Shown in pieces: positions 37,501-53,100 of a DNA stretch of 64,000 nt. The notes beneath the pieces are model-generated. The model searched no databases, had not been told where the DNA came from, and saw only the letters and a program-made list of their open reading frames with translations. The DNA comes from Pecten maximus (Eukaryota). The position numbers were made by a program, and so were the translations under genes. How positions within the stretch are numbered: the first letter of the stretch is position 1; each line of letters begins with the position of its first letter. The stretch spans positions 42,594,001 through 42,658,000 of the forward strand of contig NC_047019.1 of assembly GCF_902652985.1 (NCBI RefSeq). The letters run 5' to 3'.

Positions 37501-40500
37501 CAAATGTCTGAAGTAACACATTTTATACTGTGTTGAATTTAACATTACAAAGTCATAAAGGAAAAGTCTGAAATCTGATTTTTCTGGATGAAAATGAAAC
37601 CTACCATCCTCAGCAGACTTTCTGCCTGCTCCAAGAGAGCTCCAGCAAAGACAAGAGTGAAGTTGGTACCATCTCCAACTTCCTGCTCCTGTTGATGTGA
37701 TGCAATTACCAACATCTTGGCTGCTGGGTGCTGAACCTCCAGTTCTCGTAGGATGGTGGCAGCATCATTGGTCACAAAGAGCTTTTCTAACTGGTTGATG
37801 ACCATCTTATTCTGGCCTGTAACATGAAATATTACACAAAACTTTGTTTACACTTCATTACATATTTTACACAGCCTACTTCCATCATAAAGAATTGTCT
37901 GAATTTCTTCTATGTGTTTGCCGACATTGCAATTTTAATACCCTACTAATTGGTTATTCATCTTCAACTAGAAACTTAAACGTTAATAAACAGTAGTTTG
38001 ACAGTCAGACTATTGTAATTTTAAACCTCTGCTAATTCATCTTCAACTAGTAACTTAAACATTAATTAAATAACAGTAGTTTGATAGACTAGATAAATCT
38101 TCATGAGCTTTAACACTGTAACATGTAGATCTCCCATAAAAAGACTGGGCTGTTACCGAAATACCTTGGACTGTCCTGTTCATGCTACAAATCTTACCTA
38201 GTGGGCCCAAGGCTGATCGTGTGGTCCTCGCTAACTCCTTACAAGCGTCTATGTTCCGATAGACAGCCTCTTCTAGTCCACTATAGTGCTACATGATTAA
38301 AAGAGAAACACATTTGATAAAGTTACCATTTCAATTTTCGAAATTATCCGTGTTTCCTGCGATGGAATAAATAAACATAATTGCACAGAAAATCCACAAA
38401 ACCCTACTGCTGTGCAATTCGCACCGAAATATTCTGCCACACCTCCACTTCATTCAGATATCATACACATGTGACACCACAGACAACCATAAACAGATCA
38501 TAGCATGGCGAGTGATTAGGTTATTAGTTTTGCTGTGATGATATAACTAGTTAATGAAATCAGAATATAAACAAGAGATCCCAGAGGAATCTTGGCGCCC
38601 ACCATTGAATGATCTTCATAGGTTCCATGTCAGATTGATCTTTTCTCTACTTTTCCCTTCATTTTATATATTAATTACTAATCTGTGCAAATTGAGACAT
38701 CCCTCCAGTACTTTTCAAACAAGGGAATCCTAGCTATATAAGAAATTTGAGATTTAACGATAATGGCTGTTTGTTTGCCAGGTTGTTTTCAGGACAGACT
38801 GGTCCAAAAATGCAATACAAGGGACCAAGGGGAACCTACTTATGAAATTTGAGAAAGATCCATTCAGTACTTTGAGAAATAGAGATAACAAACTTCAATT
38901 GTCAAAATCCAAGATGGCGGTCTGTCGGCCATATTGTTTTCCAATTGATCTCAAAATGCAATAAGCATAACGAGGCACCAAGGGGAACCTCAATTCGAAA
39001 TTTGAGAAAGATCCCTTCAGTACTTTCTCAGAAATAGCGATAACAAACTTCAATTGTCAAAATCCAAGATGGCTGCCTGTCGGCCATGTTATTTTCAGAT
39101 TGGTCTCAAAATGCAACATGCATAACTAAGCACCAAGGGAAACTTACATATGAAATTTGAGAAAGATCACTTCAGTACTTTCTCAGAAATAGCGATAACA
39201 AACTTCAATTGTCAAAATCCAAGATGGCTGCCTGACGGCCATGTTGTTATCCGATTGGTCTCAAATCGCAATATGCATAACTATGCACCAAGGGGAACCT
39301 ACATATGAAATTTGAGAAAGATCCCTTCAGTACTTTCTCAGAAATAGTGATAACAAACTTCAATTGTCAAAATCCAAGATGGCTGCCTGTCGGCCATGTT
39401 GTTATCCGATTGGTCTCAAAATGCAATATGCATAACTAGGCACCAAGGGGAACCTTCATATGAAATTTGAGAAAGATCCCTTCAGTACTTTCTCAGAAAT
39501 AGCGATAACAAACTTCAATTGTCAAAATCCAAGATGGCTGCCTGTCGGCCATGTTATTTTCAGATTGGTCTCAAAACGCAATATGCATAACTAGGCACCA
39601 AGGGGAACCTACATATGAAATTTGAGAAAGATCCCTTCAGTACTTTCTGAGAAATAGCGATAACAAGAATTGTTTACGGACGGAGGGACGGAGGGACGGA
39701 CGGACGACGGACCACGGACGCAGGGCGATTTGAATAGCCCACCATCATCAGATGGTGGGCTAAAAACTTAAAAAATATTACACACAAAAATGAACTCACT
39801 CATGCACAAAGTCACATCAATATGAGCACCACATACAGGGCAGTGTAACAATATTTCCACATTTACTGATAGGCAACTTTTTATGATGTTTACTATCTTG
39901 ATGTGTCCTCATTTTCTCAATGAATCCAATTTCAGTGGCCCATTAGCTAATCGCTATCTCAGAGAGTCGTGTCAGTCATTTTTTGTTTTTTGTTTGTGAA
40001 CAGATTGCCTGTGCATGCTTGTACTGAAAGGCTTAGGCAGTGAACAATTTTCGCACTTACCTGAATTTACATTTTCAAAGCTTTAATTTTTACTAGTTGA
40101 TGAAAATACAAGATTCTCGTTTATATTTATCCTTATAGGATAAACTCATTTCAACGATATAATGCCCCATCAACGATGCATAAACACAGGTTAAGTTATT
40201 ATCTGGGAGTGCTACCTTTTGATCACTGCCAAAAACAGATTTTTTTAACTACAGAAAGGGGAGGTGGTGACATTAGATGGAAATCAGTGGGTCTCTTAGT
40301 GTAGAACTTCGCGTTGAGTATGGATACCTCAGAGGTATGCCGGGCAGTTAGAGCAAATAAACTATGTGTAGTTATAAACAAGGGATGATAAGATTTGTCC
40401 TGATGAAGACCCTGTGATAGGGTCGAAACTAGTAGACCAATAAAATCTTGGCAATGCTCGAGAATGTTGTGGTTACTATCCCTTGTTTATAAGATCTTTT

Positions 40501-41093: not shown

Positions 41094-41129
<36 letters not shown>

Positions 41130-44100
41130 GTAAATGTGTCATTGTAAAATTTTAATGTAAAATGGCTAATTGTTTTCCCGTTTGCCTGGGCCTGTGAGGG
41201 GTGTGTCCCTGTGGGTCCAATGATTGGTCAGTGAAGTAAGCTGGTACTCACGGCCTCCGTCCAATCCCCGATTTACCCAGGGTCCCCTAGGTCCCGGTTT
41301 AGGTTTGAATCACAGAAGTTTTATTCATTCGAGATACTTTGGCTTGCGTGTCAACTTTGTTTTTTGTCACGTCAAGTCGGAAGTTCGGAGCCTAAGTCGG
41401 GCACATACGACCGAACTTTCATTACGATGGTATCAATCACGAGCATATTCGAGTAACAGAAGATCAGGAGAATCAATTCTTCGACACGAAACCTGATTAA
41501 GCTGTATAATTACGAACTCTCGATTTATTTCCCATTGTGTTGGGAACTCCGAGCTACGAGTCCAACGATCCGATTTGTGTTGAGAACATCGATTTACGCA
41601 CTTGTTAATATGGCCGGTGAATGGTGAATGAACTTGATTGGGTCATGCAGAGAAATCGTAGAACCAAATCCCGAATTGATTATCGATCCTTACACGAAGG
41701 GAATTGGAACAGTAGTGTGTCCGATATATCTGAAACGAACCCTCAAGAACTGTCTATAAACATTGCAAATCAAGAGGACCTATTTTTCGCTTCGTGTGCA
41801 GGAATGGCTGAAGGGGGTAAATCTGTCACGCCCCGGGCTTATCGCAGTCTAGAGAACGTTTGCATCGAGTCTCCTTTGGTTAGTGATGTGGACAAGCGCC
41901 TTGAGGAGGCAGACCGGGAGATCGCGCTGTTAGAGAAAAAACTGGAGTCGGCCAGATTGAACAGTGCATTAAAGGACAGAAGGAAGAAGCGGGATGATCT
42001 TCAGAGGCAGTTAGATGACATCCAGCAGGATCAGCCTCAATCAGCAGCGACTGGCCTTGGTTCAGGTATGCCTAACGACATAGACTTGATTAAACTGAGA
42101 AAAATGGACCAGCTGGTCAGCAGATCGAGCAAGAAGATGTCCAGGGTGTTGCCGGAATTTTCCGGTAGTGATACTGACTCTGACACTCTATCAGTCGCCT
42201 CATCGGCTTCCTACAATAGCTTTAAACGAGCACGTAAGGGTGAAAAACTCAGATCTGGTTTGAAAGCTAAAGCTGGAGACGTCGTGAAATTCCCTCAAGC
42301 TTATCCCCACCACTTTCTTCAATACAAATATGTAAGTAAGAATCCCCAGTTTCAAGATCTCACCTTTAAATTATTTGTGGCGGGAGAGCTTGAGATAATT
42401 TCCAAGACGAGCTCTGCTTCAGAGAAGGAAGGAAGGACAGTATTCCTTCAGAAAATTGTGTATTATAGCAATATTTATGAATGGAAAGCCTTGCTTGCAT
42501 GGTATGCGGCATGGCTTCGCAAGATAGAGTTGGGTGAGAGATCATGGTCAGATGATCCCTCAAGTATTGAAGTCCCAATTTTGGCGAAACATGTGTTGAT
42601 GCAAAAAAATGAGAAACCCAGAAATAGTGGTCCGATTCAGTCGGACTCTGGGAGAGTTTGGTTTTGTGTAATGTTTCAGAAAAATCGTTGTAGCGAAAGA
42701 GGGGATCATGATGGCGACATACGGGGTGTCAAAAGGCATTTGCTACATATCTGTGCCACATGTTGGAAAAAAGATGGGGTAAAAAGACAACATCCTGAAT
42801 CAGCAGAGACATGTCCAAATGCCTTGTGACTAACCGTCCCGTCTGTAGGTATTGAGATAGATCCAGACACCTCAATTATAGAACCCGAGTATGTGCCTTT
42901 TGAATTTGGAGGTAATTTGTTTGTATCGGGTGGCCAAGATATTGATTATAGACATATACCTATAGACGCTGTAGATGATATAGTTTCTGAGGTACCCGAA
43001 GAAACTGTTAGAAATTTACAGGTTCAATCCTGCTTTAATTTTAATACCCAAAGGACCCCTGTTAAGTCAAATTTTAACATCAGATATATGAAAGACAGGT
43101 TAGAGTTGTACTCGGATCTAGAGGTTTTAAAATTTTTAGAGTTTGGTTTTCCCATAGGGTTAGACAACCACCTCTTAATTCATCGCCAGGAGGCTACTTC
43201 AGAGGTAAGTTCTTCTATCAAGTACAGAAATCACAAAGGAGCTACAGACTTTCCTCAGGAAATAAGTGAGTATTTACGTATTGAGTTGGCAAATGAGTCG
43301 GTGTTAGGTCCATTTGAGGAAAATCCGTTTTCCTTACCCATGGTGATTTCCCCCTTAAACTCAGTTCCAAAGAGGGATTCTGAGGAAAGACGCATAATTT
43401 TGGATTTGAGCTTTCCGGACTCTAAGTCAGTAAATAGTTGTATCCCCAAGACTTCATATTTAGGGGACCCCATCTCATTGTCATACCCCAGGGTAGATGA
43501 CCTGGTAGAGATTATCAAGGAGAAAGGGAGGGGTTGTTGTCTTTTCAAGAGAGACCTTAGGAAGGCTTACAGACAAATTCCCATCGACCCGGGAGATATT
43601 CGTTTTTTAGGTTTCTCTTGGGAAGGTAAGATGTATTTTGATCGGGTCTTATCTATGGGTTTGCGTTCGGCAGCGTACATTTGTCAAAGAGTCACAAGTC
43701 TGATTTCGTTCTTAATGCTGCAGGACGGTTTTCTGGTCCTCAATTATCTAGATGATTTTGCAGGGGCTGAGTGCCCGGACATGGCAGATTTGGCTTTCTG
43801 GAGACTTGGTTCCCTTCTCTCTGATTGTGGCTTTATCGAATCGGAGAAGAAGGCAGAGCCTCCTGCCACTCGTATGGTTTTTTTGGGTGTCTTGTTTGAC
43901 ACAGTCAGGATGGTCTTAGAGGTCCCTGATTTTAGGTTGCAGGAAATAGGAATCTTAACCTGCGAATGGTTGAAAAAGGAAAGGGCTTCCTTAAAGGAGA
44001 TTCAATCCCTGCTGGGAAAATTACAGTTTGTCGCTGCCTGTGTTCGTCCAGGTCGACTTTTTGTTAGCCGTATATTGAACTGGCTCCGGTCGATTGGTCA

Positions 44101-46955
44101 GGACAGTCATCGTTCCTGGAGTATTTCAGAAGAGGTGAGAAAGGACATATTGTGGTGGCACATTTTTCTGGCACAGTATAACGGTGTGTCCATTATGTTT
44201 CTGGAACAATGGTCCACTCCAGACACTGAGTTTGCCTCAGATGCTTGTCTCACAGGCGGGGGAGGCTACTTCATGGGTAGATACTTTCATACAGAGTTCC
44301 CAGACACCATCCTTCAACTGTCCCCATGTATAAACATCCTAGAGTTGTTAACAGTTATGGTGAGTATAAAACTCTGGGCCAGTGCCTTTAAAGGTAAGAG
44401 AATTGTCATACTATGTGACAACGAAGCCACGGTATCGGTCCTCAACTCAGGTAGGTCCAGAATTCAATTTATGCAGAGCTGTCTCAGAGAGATATGTTAC
44501 TTTGCTGCTAGTTTTGAATTTGAGATCAGGGCGCAACACATCTCTGGAATTCAAAATCGACTACCAGACCATTTATCCAGGTGGCATTTAGATGTTATAC
44601 ACCAGCAGGAGTTCATCCGTTTGACCAAGGAAGTTGACCTGGTAGAGGAGGTAGTACCCTCTAGCATGTTCTCCTTCTCCCACTCTTGGTAGATTATCTA
44701 TACATAGTAGTTGAGACAGGGTATATATATAGTGATGTATCCCTCTCTTGGTGGTTTACCTTTTTCTTCAGTTTTGTACATATGTTGACACTATATACAT
44801 AGCAGTGTATCTTTTCCTAGTTTATAAGGTAAATTTTAGCGATATCAGGCTTTTATGACTCCTGTTTCATCCTTCCAGACACTGCCTGGTCACAGCTTAG
44901 GAAAGATCTCAAGGTGTCCGCTAGAGCAGCCTTCGCTGAGGGTACTTATAGAAATTTCCGTACACAATGGAAAGCTTATTTTCTGTTTTGCGAAGCGTTC
45001 CGGAAACAGCCGTTGCCGGTAAGCACGGAGATTATATGCCTTTACGCTCAGTTTTTAAGTCGGACTTTCATCAGTGTCGATTCTATTCGCAACTATATAG
45101 CGGGAGTCAAAACTCTTCACATGTTGCTAAACTTAAAGTATGACATTAGACAATATGAACTGAACTTAGTTTTGAAAGGTTTGTCGAGGTTGAACCCACA
45201 TTGTCCCTCTCAAGCGAAACCTATCACCCCTCAGATTCTCGGTAAGATACATCAGCGACTAGATCATGATGATCCAGAGGACACCACTCTGTGGTGTATG
45301 TTTTTATTCAGTTTCTATCTCATGCTGCGGAAGTCTAATTTAATGCCTAATAGTAGTCACAAATTTGACCCTAGTAAACATCTTTTACGACAGGATATTT
45401 TAGTAGAGGATGGGGTCCTCTTGGTTGTCGTAAAGTGGTCTAAGACCAATCAATTCGGACATCGGATCGTGCGTTCCCCTCTGGTGGCCATTCCTGGGTC
45501 CCCACTTTGTCCTTTACATGCCTTTGTTCGCATGACTGATCTAAACCCTGCACGTCCCAGGGCCCCAGCCTTCCTTAAGACTACAGGAAAGAAAATTGTC
45601 CCCTTTTGTTACCCACAATTTCAGCAGAGGCTACGGGAACTTATTCTTAGTGTAGGCCTAGATGCTGCCTCGTTCTCTTCGCATAGTTTTCGCAGGGGAG
45701 GGGCCACTTGGGCCTTTTCTTTGGGGATTCCAGGGGAGTTAATTCAGGTGCAGGGGGATTGGGCCAGCGACGCCTACAAAACGTATATCAGTTTTTCCTT
45801 AGAGGATAGGCTTCAGGTTTGCAGAAACATGAGAGATGCAATTTTAGCATTGCATCATTAACCAAGTTATCAGCCTCCCGCAGTTTTTTCGGGCTTGGTG
45901 GCCGGAGGCTTGGCGGCCCCTCAAACTGCTTGTATTTGTGTTTAATATGTTTGCTTATTAACATGCTTATTCATAAGTATTATTAATTTGCTTAATTTGA
46001 GCTTTGTTTGATTTGAGCTATGTTTAATTTGAGCTATGTTTAATTTGAGCTATGTTTAATTTGAGTTTTGTTTAATTGAGCTTTGTTTAAATTGATCTTC
46101 ATTTATTTGAGTTTGATCATGTAGATGCTTAAAGCTGTGTGTTCGATAACAAGCTTGCATGTAGTGCTAGAGGTGTATTTCCTTTTGGGGTTGCCTTGCT
46201 TATGCCATTTGCATACCAGAGACATTTAAGTAAAGTGGAGCATGGCACCCTAACTGGCTGACGCCTTCTAATGTGTTATACAATAAATTGTTACGGGCAT
46301 ACAGTTGTTATGTTGTAAATATCGTTGACCAGGCAGGGGAGAGAATTACGTTTACTTAATCCCATGTAATTTATTTTATTATACCGACATGTGGGAACAG
46401 TTTTGGAAAATAAATTTTGTATCTTGTGCACTATACTACAATATTCTAGAAAGAATCAGGCATGGATTCATTGTGTAATGATACTGCTCAGATAGGGGAG
46501 GTTACTCTTCCCAAACTTCAACAATCCCTTACAGCATGTAAAAACATGCGGACGGATTATCATTCATGAAGGATCATGATTTTACCAATTTTACCATTTT
46601 GAAATAAATAATGGAACCCTAGATAAAAGAAATGTATACTAAAAATAAATGTTATGCTATTTCACTATAATATCGTATATCTTATGTATGGTCCAAGTGG
46701 AAAGCCTTCAAGAATGTTCTGGAAATCATAAACACAAACAGCATGAACAGCATGGTTGTCACATGGTTTCAATGGTTCATGGAAAACAGACGATTAAACG
46801 TGAAAGAGATTTCTGTGTGATTTCAGAAAATGTCGAACTAACAAACCAATACGCAATTTACTCAATTTTGAATAAAGATAGAAAATATATATTACCTTAG
46901 CACCATCTTTCAACATCTGGGCAAAGCCCGGTGCTGTCGGTACGTGCATCGCCAT
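31569..46955 (-). CDS. CCT8: T-complex protein 1 subunit theta (chaperonin CCT8), complete, 16 exons, 544 aa
   Basis: Exons 46896-46955, 38198-38288, 37605-37816, 37156-37225, 36753-36881, 36287-36348, 35894-36031, 34932-35003, 34554-34727, 34330-34417, 34002-34117, 33774-33845, 33150-33242, 32307-32378, 31873-31992, 31569-31634 (1635 nt, all GT-AG, phases consistent). Peptides MAMHVPTAPGFAQMLKDGAK, TNDAATIL, EVGDGTNF, VPGAGATE and IIMAKPAGGPK...WDDD*. Confidence 0.97.
35490..35866 (+). mobile_element. Degenerate non-autonomous Helentron-type (HINE-like) element
   Basis: Starts AACAAGAGGCTCAGAGAGCCTGCATCGCTCAC (short hairpin plus subterminal motif) and ends GGTGAGCCAAAAA. The terminus resembles the reverse-oriented one at 60875-60910. 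Confidence 0.55.
38569..39766 (+). mobile_element. Non-autonomous Helentron-type (HINE-like) element with about 6 internal 155-bp repeats
   Basis: 5' hairpin (AGATCCCAGAGGAATCT) and subterminal GCCCACCAT; 155-bp tandem units (marker at 38891, 39046, 39201, 39356, 39511); GACG microsatellite; 3' palindrome TAGCCCACCATC-ATCA-GATGGTGGGCTA; A-rich flanks. Confidence 0.8.
40390..40449 (+). ncRNA. Minimal type I hammerhead ribozyme (Penelope/retrozyme-like)
   Basis: Stem I AAGATTT-GTC / GAC-(CAATA)-AAATCTT; core CTGATGA+A 40400-40407; stem II GACCCT/AGGGTC; GAAA 40425-40428; stem III C-TA-G; GTA cleavage triplet 40432-40434. Confidence 0.82.
41094..41128. repeat. 35-nt poly-G run
   Basis: Directly visible, immediately left of the retrotransposon. 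Confidence 0.9.
41621..42829 (+). CDS. Gag-like ORF1 (coiled coil plus C-terminal Cys/His zinc finger)
   Basis: 402 aa; heptad region RLEEADREIALLEKKLE; WFCVMFQKNRC...H...HICATC...H...CP at the C-terminus. Confidence 0.85.
   Translation: MVNELDWVMQRNRRTKSRIDYRSLHEGNWNSSVSDISETNPQELSINIANQEDLFFASCAGMAEGGKSVTPRAYRSLENVCIESPLVSDVDKRLEEADREIALLEKKLESARLNSALKDRRKKRDDLQRQLDDIQQDQPQSAATGLGSGMPNDIDLIKLRKMDQLVSRSSKKMSRVLPEFSGSDTDSDTLSVASSASYNSFKRARKGEKLRSGLKAKAGDVVKFPQAYPHHFLQYKYVSKNPQFQDLTFKLFVAGELEIISKTSSASEKEGRTVFLQKIVYYSNIYEWKALLAWYAAWLRKIELGERSWSDDPSSIEVPILAKHVLMQKNEKPRNSGPIQSDSGRVWFCVMFQKNRCSERGDHDGDIRGVKRHLLHICATCWKKDGVKRQHPESAETCPNAL
42830..44692 (+). CDS. Reverse transcriptase - RNase H (pol); frame open from the gag stop, first ATG at 43088
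   Basis: RIILDLS, KRDLRKAYRQIP, MGLRSA, YLDD, FLG; RNase H residues SDAC, LELL, CDN, LPDHLSR. Confidence 0.95.
   Translation, partial: LTVPSVGIEIDPDTSIIEPEYVPFEFGGNLFVSGGQDIDYRHIPIDAVDDIVSEVPEETVRNLQVQSCFNFNTQRTPVKSNFNIRYMKDRLELYSDLEVLKFLEFGFPIGLDNHLLIHRQEATSEVSSSIKYRNHKGATDFPQEISEYLRIELANESVLGPFEENPFSLPMVISPLNSVPKRDSEERRIILDLSFPDSKSVNSCIPKTSYLGDPISLSYPRVDDLVEIIKEKGRGCCLFKRDLRKAYRQIPIDPGDIRFLGFSWEGKMYFDRVLSMGLRSAAYICQRVTSLISFLMLQDGFLVLNYLDDFAGAECPDMADLAFWRLGSLLSDCGFIESEKKAEPPATRMVFLGVLFDTVRMVLEVPDFRLQEIGILTCEWLKKERASLKEIQSLLGKLQFVAACVRPGRLFVSRILNWLRSIGQDSHRSWSISEEVRKDILWWHIFLAQYNGVSIMFLEQWSTPDTEFASDACLTGGGGYFMGRYFHTEFPDTILQLSPCINILELLTVMVSIKLWASAFKGKRIVILCDNEATVSVLNSGRSRIQFMQSCLREICYFAASFEFEIRAQHISGIQNRLPDHLSRWHLDVIHQQEFIRLTKEVDLVEEVVPSSMFSFSHSW
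44881..45861 (+). CDS. Tyrosine recombinase; frame open from 44833, first ATG only at 45121
   Basis: Catalytic set LRKSN (R), WSKTNQ (K), HSFRRGGA (HxxR), GDW and AYKTY (Y); N-terminal core-binding-like region TYRNFRTQWKAYFLFC. Confidence 0.95.
   Translation, partial: TAWSQLRKDLKVSARAAFAEGTYRNFRTQWKAYFLFCEAFRKQPLPVSTEIICLYAQFLSRTFISVDSIRNYIAGVKTLHMLLNLKYDIRQYELNLVLKGLSRLNPHCPSQAKPITPQILGKIHQRLDHDDPEDTTLWCMFLFSFYLMLRKSNLMPNSSHKFDPSKHLLRQDILVEDGVLLVVVKWSKTNQFGHRIVRSPLVAIPGSPLCPLHAFVRMTDLNPARPRAPAFLKTTGKKIVPFCYPQFQQRLRELILSVGLDAASFSSHSFRRGGATWAFSLGIPGELIQVQGDWASDAYKTYISFSLEDRLQVCRNMRDAILALHH
45992..46100. repeat. 16-bp tandem repeat (TTAATTTGAGCTATGT), about 7 copies, in the retrotransposon 3' region
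   Basis: Directly visible. Confidence 0.9.
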
Positions 46956-50100: not shown

Positions 50101-53100
50101 CATTCAAATACCAAGGATTGGTACGTATTGTATCTATTTATTATTTGGTAAAGTCATTACTTTTTGTGTTATTTAGAATTTGAATGTGTTAATTCCAATT
50201 GAATTTACTACATTATTGTTGTAATGTATTGAAATTGGTGGGGTATACATACTTCACCTTCATTTCACTTTTGCCTATGGTTATGAGAGCATGGCTAGTC
50301 TTGTCTTGCAGCTGCTACCGAGTATGAAAGCGTATACATAAGGTCATTGGCAAAATCAAGGTCATTTTAGATGGTTGTTTCATATAAGGGTCCACTGTAT
50401 ACCATTACTCACCTCTTCTCATGATTTCTTCATGATCATCAGCCAGACTTTGTTGAGTAGGAACATGAAGATGGCAAGTAGGAGCAGAAACAGAAATAAC
50501 AAATTAAACATCTATGTATCTGGAAAAGACTCTACTGGCTGGACGACACTGCATTGAGTTCATCCATAGACATTCATATTGGTTCATGATGATGTGGGAA
50601 AGTTAGAGATTACCTGTCATCAGTGGGTAATTTCCTGGTTTTGATTGAAATTATAAAAGAGTTCTGGCTCTGGTATTGATTCTCGCATTATTAGCCCACC
50701 ATCATTAGATAATGGGCTATTCAAATGGTCCGTAAACAATCCTTGTTATCATTATTTTATGAAAAGTACCAGAGGGATATTCCTCAAACTTCATGTGTAG
50801 GTTCCTCTTGGTCCCTAGTTGTGCCATTTGAAGTAAGATTTTTGATCAGAAAAAATAAAATGGCCCACAGGTGGCAATCTTGGATTTTGAGAATTGAAGT
50901 TTGTCTTCACTATATGTCTAGTAGTATTTCTGAAACTTTATGTGTAGGGGATGTTCCCCTTGGTCCCCAGTTATGCCAATTGAATTTGGATTTTTGATAA
51001 AAAAACCACTAAATGGCTGATAGATGTCCATCAAGGATTTTAAGAATCGATGTTTGTCATCACTCTTTCTTTAAAAGTTCTTGAGGGATATTCCTCAAAC
51101 TTCATGTGTAGGTGTCTTGGTCCTTAGTTGTGCCTTATGAATTTAGATTTTGGATCAGAAAAGCAAAATGGCTGACAGACGGCCATCTTGGATTTTGATA
51201 ATTGAAGTTTGTTATCACTATTTCTTGAAAAGTACTGGAGGGATATTATCAGATTAGTAAGAGAAAAAAAAGAAAGAAGTGAAAAGTAGAGAGAAGATCA
51301 GTCTGAAATAGAACCAATAAAGATCATTCATTGGTGGGTGCCAAGACCCTTCTGGGATCTCCTGTATCATCATTAGGGTATAGATTCCATCATTCAATAT
51401 ATTTTTGTTAATATATGATATTTATATATATATATATATGTGTAACAGAAACAAAGAGTCTGAGAAACTTCCATGTGAAGAAGCTAGCCCTATGACTAAA
51501 TAATGTTGATGATTTGTCATTCCCTCGTGGCGAGCTGGCAAGGGATCTCTACCGACTTCATAGCGGTCCAATTATTCTTAAACCTCATACACTTACAGCC
51601 ATCATCTTTTGTACGAGTTTGCATTTCAATCACATGGAGTCAAATGAAGCCACTGATGTATGCTATTAATTGATCGTCTACTACCAACTTTATTAATGAT
51701 CCAATTTTCCTGAAACTTCTTACACTTACTCACAATTACCATCATATCTCTGTACAAGTTTGTGTTTTAACCACTTTGTTTAAAAAATTGGTCATTGTTA
51801 CTGTGATAGAGTTTCACCATCCTCACTCTAAAGACTTCATTAATGATACCATTTTTCCTGAATCTTCATGCACTGACTCACAATGCAATTCTATCATCTC
51901 TTTACAAGTTGGCATTTCAACCATTAGTGGTAAAAAATGAGGTCAATGATGTTACAATTAAAATTTTTAGGTCAATGGTCTGCCAACTTCAATAATGACC
52001 TAATTTTCCTGAAACTTCATACCATACTCTTTACAACTGTCATTTTTGTAGGAAATTGAATTTCAGCCACCTGGGGTCTAATTGAGGTCAGTGCTACTAT
52101 AAATAGATTGTCAACATCCTCTCTCTACCAACTTTCATTAATTACCTGATTGTCTTGATCAGAAATTTAATACACTTGTACAGCCATCACTTGTTGCTTA
52201 AGTTAAGGTTTCACCCACCTGGGCTTAAAATTGAGGGATCATCCTTTGTACAAGGTTTCACCCACCTGGGACCAAAATTGAGTCCATTAATTATTGTTAC
52301 CGGTAATATAACTAGATTTCTAATGTTCTTGCTCTACAAACTTCATTAATTTTCTCACAGTCCTGGAAGCTTAAGTCTTACCCCATTTTACTTGCAACCA
52401 TCATACTTTGGGCAAATTTAGGTTTTAGTCTCCTCGGGTAAAAATTGCTGATAGTCTTGATCTGCTACTATAAATAGATGTTCAACATCCTTACTCTACT
52501 AGGATTGAAATTGAAGTTGCTTTTACTTTTACCTTCATCATCCTCGCTCTACCAGTCTTGTTAATTTTCAAACTCTTGCTCAAAAATATTATCAGTTGTT
52601 ATGCTATTTAATAGTGTTTTTGTGAGCAACATATTTAGTGAAGAGAACATTATTATCTTTTTCTTGTATAGGTCAATGTTGAATAGCAACAGGATTTGTG
52701 TCACTTAAAGTATACAAGAAATCAGAATTTCAATCAAAGATGTGCAGGACATTTAACTTTTCTTACACTCTTCTATGATGAAATATTTTGTCATATCCTA
52801 ACCTGGACTAATGAATATGCCAACAAGCACAGTTGTGGTTGAATGAAAGACTTGGGAAATGTACATGTAGTGTCCCAAAACTGGCAGCCATATCATGTCT
52901 ACATGATTGTCAGATGATAATACATGATGATGTGTTATGTACATGATATACTGGTCGTTCGATATCTACCTATAACATTTATAGTCTAGGGGGAAGTAAC
53001 TTTTCCGGATATTGTCAGGGCATCCATTAACCCGAGACCTCGGGTCAAAGACGTAGCAAAATTTAATTTGACGCACGACTTTTGCATGCCATGCGTCAAT

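Follow-up and report, generated by a model that had tools for sequence, protein, structure and literature searches.

In-frame UGA-C junctions between gag and pol point to probable stop-codon readthrough in Ngaro-type retrotransposons of Pecten maximus

UGA-C is the leakiest stop tetranucleotide (PMC4615788), and UGA-CUA is a type II readthrough motif, in which an in-frame UGA is followed by CUA or CGG and, frequently but not obligatorily, by a 3′ stem-loop within about 150 nt (PMC4615788, PMC3159437; statements on cited papers refer throughout to the portions available to us). Such stops, with their 3′ context, precede the polymerase in alphaviruses and tobraviruses (UGA-CUA / UGA-CGG; PMC3159437) and recur in metazoan UGA-CUAG genes (PMC4615788). 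Murine leukemia virus (MuLV) makes a Gag-Pol fusion through its gag stop, a UAG with a pseudoknot (PMC3159437), and in Tca2, a long terminal repeat (LTR) retrotransposon of Candida albicans, gag and pol are in frame with a UGA between them (PMC2194720). Here we describe a tyrosine recombinase (YR) retrotransposon of 5207 nt in a 64,000-nucleotide stretch of Pecten maximus DNA (NCBI RefSeq assembly GCF_902652985.1, contig NC_047019.1, positions 42,594,001 to 42,658,000; the window, in which positions are counted from its first letter). We consider it very likely that its reverse transcriptase (RT) is produced as a Gag-Pol fusion by occasional readthrough of UGA-C(UA), as comparison of related sequences indicates. 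YR, in turn, is reached by a GT-AG splice that appears in transcript contigs and fuses gag codons 1-148 to it in frame.

By its gene order and repeats, the element is a Ngaro-type tyrosine recombinase retrotransposon. It resembles the Ngaro superfamily (order DIRS; PMC3783388, PMC9210276, PMC8547959) in its gag-RT/RNase H-YR order, its A1...B1 A2 B2 repeats and the lack of a methyltransferase, and its relatives carry an SGNH hydrolase open reading frame (ORF); split direct repeats, absence of a methyltransferase and an SGNH-type ORF are all described Ngaro features (PMC3783388, PMC9210276). The ORFs of described Ngaro elements, however, overlap in different frames (PMC9210276), whereas in this element a UGA-CUA separates a gag and a pol of one frame, a splice leads to YR, which has no overlap with pol, and the window family has no hydrolase ORF. 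In the available portions of the literature searched, on YR elements or zebrafish transposable elements (PMC8547959, PMC6681497, PMC3783388, PMC9210276, PMC7192593, PMC4157794) and PMC9341512, neither readthrough nor a splice from gag to YR was found reported for elements of the DIRS order; the Goodwin/Poulter papers, the review by Poulter and Butler and the entry notes of Repbase lay outside this scope and may mention it. Readthrough at a gag-pol junction is a mechanism already known, but for this group it seems undescribed, in agreement with an earlier model-made interpretation of the window's letters alone (the sequence-only reading), which knew of no such arrangement in this order.

The gag-pol junction and its close copies

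The gag-like ORF (41621 to 42829; 402 aa, with an ATG start and a TGA end) and the pol ORF (42830 to 44692; 620 aa) share one frame, and only the TGA at 42827-42829 lies between them (these and all other features of the element are on the + strand). Read through, the frame is open to 44692 and would encode 402+1+620 = 1023 aa. The junction bases are TGA CTA ACC GTC CCG TCT GTA GGT, of which TGA CTA (42827 to 42832) matches the published type II definition (PMC3159437, PMC4615788). The first in-frame ATG of pol, at 43088, falls within a conserved N-terminal block; two earlier ATGs, at 42891 and 42975, are out of frame. The sequence-only reading had proposed the single frame, the leaky UGA-CUA context and the absence of an in-frame pol ATG before 43088, and the ORFs, the bases and the published motif bear out all three.

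The junction nevertheless differs from the known systems in several respects. Compared with alphavirus, tobravirus and metazoan sites, it gives no 3′ stem-loop signal, has A (window family) or G (sister family) at position +7, and belongs to a retrotransposon rather than a virus. Compared with MuLV, the stop is UGA-C without a detected structure, and the element has neither a protease nor a DDE integrase.

We searched the Pecten maximus genome with the element's DNA and obtained 18 matches, 12 of them at ≥97% identity, the window copy included. TGA CTA ACC is in frame in 11 near-identical copies (again counting the window copy), and TGACTA is kept even in two damaged loci, L011 (the twelfth match at ≥97%) and L013 (an 85% match), so that 13/13 close matches carry it. 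On this comparison the stop is fixed in the family, and is not the private nonsense mutation that the sequence-only reading had named as grounds for its own rejection. In a sister family with 56% identity in pol, gag ends in an in-frame TGA CTA GGC; the sister group keeps TGA at 8 of the 9 places with a junction, the ninth being a damaged copy with TTA.

The bases directly 3′ of the stop evolve as coding sequence, judging from two comparisons. Between the window family and its relative L014, the first five codons past the stop (L-T-V-P-S) are kept, with 3 synonymous and 0 replacement changes, and between L049 and L034 the first eight (L-G-P-G-G-R-K-S) are kept, with 4 synonymous and 0 replacement changes.

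Stop context and frame across families

A wider survey started from 142 pol matches in the same genome; 80 stretches were fetched and the frame of pol relative to gag was classed. From these, 35 families were hand-picked, each represented by one member with a readable gag end, leaving out broken loci, near-duplicates, the unclear locus L084 and the fused locus L066. Gag and pol are in frame in 7/35 families, and all seven have TGA-C at the junction (5 TGA-CTA, 1 TGA-CAA and 1 TGA-CTC), preceded by CAA in five. By comparison, TGA-C occurs at the gag stop in 1/28 families whose pol is shifted to +1 or −1, and at 4/40 pol stops. Among 15 loci from other samples, 7 have an in-frame TGA-C junction (next bases CAA, CCG, CTG, CAG, CAA, CTC and CTA), 3 lack a junction, 3 from a single family combine TGA-C with a +1 pol, and 2 are damaged and lack a stop between gag and pol. 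Combined, 14/14 in-frame junctions are TGA-C, 6/14 being TGA-CTA. The association between an in-frame pol and TGA-C gave Fisher p = 1.2e-6 within the genome and 2.8e-10 with the outside loci, in tests that ignore kinship. The conservation check proposed in the sequence-only reading thus came out in favor of the stop and its context, but not of the downstream AG, which is lost in sister copies.

Many of the in-frame elements are only about 28% alike in pol. On quick, unrooted RT/RNase H (RT/RH) trees they occupy three places, requiring at least three changes of state, and a single clade of in-frame elements is rejected (approximately unbiased test, p-AU 1e-32). Being unrooted, the trees do not separate gain from loss of readthrough.

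Other junction types lie close to these families. In L188:600, L190:208 and L191:994, the outside family with a +1 pol, gag ends in TCC TGA C and pol continues in the +1 frame; the UCC-UGA resembles the antizyme +1 frameshift site, and the junction may represent a switch from readthrough to frameshifting at the same stop. A clade nested among the readthrough families (L087, L119, L120, L121 and L123) has its pol shifted to −1; in L123 start and stop overlap as ATGA, and in L121 an ATG follows the gag stop by 5 nt, an arrangement that suggests termination-reinitiation. The 968-aa fused ORF of L066 was considered as a sense-codon counter-example and rejected: on the tree it is a near-copy of L070, from a +1 family, and is therefore most likely a frameshifted copy. 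A predicted 955-aa protein (P0100) joins gag and pol with Trp at the matching place, as if the gene caller had read TGA as Trp; its DNA was unseen and it was not counted. Finally, L192 and L193 are contigs in bacterial genome bins that carry this eukaryotic retrotransposon, most likely through contamination of the bins with host DNA.

Transcripts and alternative routes to Pol

We placed contigs from eight runs of four studies on positions 41100-46400 of the window. None of the runs that contain the element is recorded as RNA; X1-X7 are RNA by guess, and X16 and X18 are of unknown type. Since these are contigs only, their depth is no guide to levels, and rare junctions may go missing. The window family appears to be transcribed. 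Contigs of X1 and X2 contain the joint 42065/44879, which removes a 2813-nt GT-AG intron (42066 to 44878) comprising the 3′ part of gag and the whole of pol; the donor is CAG/GTATGC at 42065/6, and the acceptor follows a pyrimidine tract with a CAG ending at 44878. Across this joint the frame stays open for 475 aa, made up of gag codons 1-148 and YR. Loose ends at donor 42065 occur as well, in X1, X2, X3 and X5. A phase-1 YAG preceded by 9-13/15 pyrimidines stands at the matching place before YR in 8/8 elements with a match to the YR N-terminus (two further loci gave no such match). A second donor GT lies inside YR (45019 to 45020) and splices to sequence beyond the element, with loose ends at 45018 in X1, X2 and X4. 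Donors 42065 and 45018 reach the same outside sequences (two different ones, in two studies), and some copies therefore probably form chimeric transcripts with host exons.

The sequence-only reading had also suggested that a single motif at the stop could drive pol expression by readthrough, by splicing, or both. Of these, the sequence comparison supports readthrough well, and the splicing part is not supported. In the splicing version, donor 42065 would be joined to the AG ending at 42848, with TGACTAAC as branch point (the two together spanning 42827 to 42848), to yield Gag(1-148)-Pol, alone or beside readthrough. The AG is in phase 1, in frame with the real gag donor, and has 10/15 pyrimidines upstream, which makes the splice formally possible; the contigs demonstrate that the element does splice, and the CTAG of the sister family is itself a phase-1 YAG. 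Yet the first six codons past the stop would be intronic in the window family, and the conservation of codons there weighs against this model. At the sixth codon GTA is replaced by ATT in L014, which removes the proposed AG, and no AG stands at 42847-42848 in L013, L015 or L017 either. The would-be branch A (42833) is only 15 nt from the end of the AG, compared with a usual distance of 18-40 nt. No conserved acceptor was found past the gag stop across the 14 in-frame elements, in contrast to the constant place and phase of the YR acceptor. TGACTAAC occurs once in the 5207-nt element and recurs in only 1/13 other in-frame elements, where an AG follows directly. It is mostly a by-product of TGA-CTA; its resemblance to a branch point is probably a coincidence, and the site probably not functional. 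A joint into 42849, which the sequence-only reading had expected in transcripts, is listed in none of the eight runs, although contigs of six bridge that position; as contigs drop rare forms, this lowers the likelihood of such a splice without removing it. Such a splice would, moreover, need neither an in-frame gag and pol nor a UGA-C stop, and we regard it as highly improbable.

Nor is it probable that translation terminates at the UGA and pol is then restarted at an AUG or near-cognate codon, or that pol has its own transcript from an internal promoter, as in Tca2. A minor promoter does exist at the Tca2 junction (PMC2194720), and L121 and L123 provide an ATG at or just past the gag stop in neighboring −1-frame families. 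However, the first in-frame Met falls inside RT in 5/14 in-frame elements (window-pol position 238-276), a start at 43088 would cut the conserved N-terminal block of the window family, the two AUGs at 42891 and 42975, both out of frame, would intercept ribosomes as they scan, and the strict in-frame UGA-C would be left unexplained. The invariable UGA is compatible with other forms of recoding, namely A-to-I editing to Trp or insertion of selenocysteine, but these have a very small chance of being correct: the TGA at 42827-42829 is covered in 7/8 runs and carries a changed base in none, the only Rfam matches in the element are two weak, chance-level ones and include no selenocysteine insertion sequence (SECIS), and the +4 C points to leakiness. 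Least credible of all, and already largely refuted, is the idea that gag and pol were once fused and that a non-autonomous family carries the TGA along as a nonsense mutation. Two damaged copies with TTA and two fused outside loci would fit it, but in-frame UGA-C is present in 14/14 elements, many of them divergent and on separate branches, and most young copies have an intact pol and YR.

Several observations weigh against expression of Pol by readthrough and of YR by splicing. The 3′ stem-loop that often accompanies type II sites was not found: local folding of 60, 100 and 150 nt past the stop gave z = 0.02, 0.84 and −1.23 in the window family, and over seven families (the window family and six others; 60-150 nt) z ranged from −1.2 to +1.7, with no z below −1.3. 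Alone, the gag-UGA-pol junction of Tca2, an LTR element, gave no readthrough in yeast reporters (PMC2194720). TGA-C is combined with a +1 pol in the family of L188, L190 and L191, and in the damaged outside loci L186 and L189 gag runs into pol without a stop. TTA replaces TGA in the damaged copies L014 (whose sister L015 keeps TGA) and L038, with TGA retained in sister copies. The gag-YR joint was observed in two runs, both from the same study and RNA by guess, many gag-YR transcripts continue from 45018 by a further splice into outside exons, and, with the 42848 AG in phase with donor 42065, a rare splice to pol could still occur.

Element structure and expression plan

The gag, RT/RNase H and YR ORFs lie on one strand in that order. 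The gag ORF has no Pfam family and was assigned from its position and a C-terminal Cys/His cluster; it also encodes a coiled coil, and homologous ORFs precede pol in relatives. The pol ORF matches RVT_1 above cut-off, and RNase H families match its relatives; no methyltransferase was found in Pfam scans, and pol ends about 45 residues past the last RNase H motif. The YR ORF (44833 to 45861; 342 aa) has no ATG at its start, its coding exon begins at 44879, and its Phage_integrase match is weak (E 0.0018, below cut-off). An SGNH hydrolase ORF, an optional Ngaro trait absent from the window family, was present in 4/4 fourth ORFs scanned in relatives.

All four split direct repeats (A 223 nt, B 435 nt), together with the whole body, are present in 8/10 fetched copies, the exceptions being L166 (without A1) and L177 (internal deletion). 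The window copy has A1 (41141 to 41363), which full-length copies contain a second time, as A2, close to their 3′ end, and one B repeat (45913 to 46347), where it ends without A2-B2. This single B is what recombination between B1 and B2 would leave, and may have arisen in that way. No inverted terminal repeats were found in the element, which also lacks the other features of DIRS-like and PAT-like elements (inverted termini with an internal complementary region, or a methyltransferase). On quick trees containing no named reference Ngaro set, the window family forms a long, distinct RT/RH clade among the YR elements of its genome. The family is young, its copies being 99-100% alike. The nearest named proteins are from scallops and mussels (836/7996 scored proteins pass E 1e-40), and no relative of the element was found in viral contigs.

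A 16-nt tandem repeat (45962-46108) lies inside the B repeat, and in some copies its copy number is not the same in B1 as in B2. About 35 consecutive G (41094-41128) stand just upstream of the 5′ end of the element, which is flanked on either side by oppositely oriented arrays built from a 155-nt unit (38807-39794 and 50688-51365), probably a tandem or Helitron-like repeat common in bivalves.

Our favored account of Gag-Pol by readthrough and Gag-YR by splicing builds on features observed directly: the frame, the conservation of the stop and of its +4 C, the coding signature past the stop, the structure of the element and the gag-YR splice junction. One promoter would serve three proteins: unspliced RNA would give Gag and Gag-Pol, and spliced RNA would give Gag(N)-YR. 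The 1023-aa Gag-Pol would arise when the UGA undergoes near-cognate decoding, at a rate of a few percent, which would set a high ratio of Gag to Gag-Pol, and leakiness would stem from the primary context (UGA-C, mostly UGA-CUA, often with CAA before it) rather than from a nearby stem-loop. We hold it somewhat more probable than otherwise that this plan is a widespread, undescribed one in Ngaro elements, with one promoter behind Gag, behind a Gag-Pol that structure-free UGA-C readthrough produces and behind a Gag-YR that a conserved phase-1 splice creates, and with a junction that has repeatedly switched between readthrough and the +1 or −1 frames, one UCC-UGA family perhaps using +1 frameshifting.

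The available portions of papers on YR retrotransposons describe ORFs but not how a start-less pol and YR are translated. For both, the window family provides an answer that can be tested, with pol reached by readthrough and YR by splicing. On this account, annotation pipelines wrongly call such elements broken, or cut Pol short at an internal Met. If the readthrough account is true, these elements would constitute a large natural set of animal UGA-C sites, seemingly without 3′ structure, that would be useful for working out the rules of readthrough.
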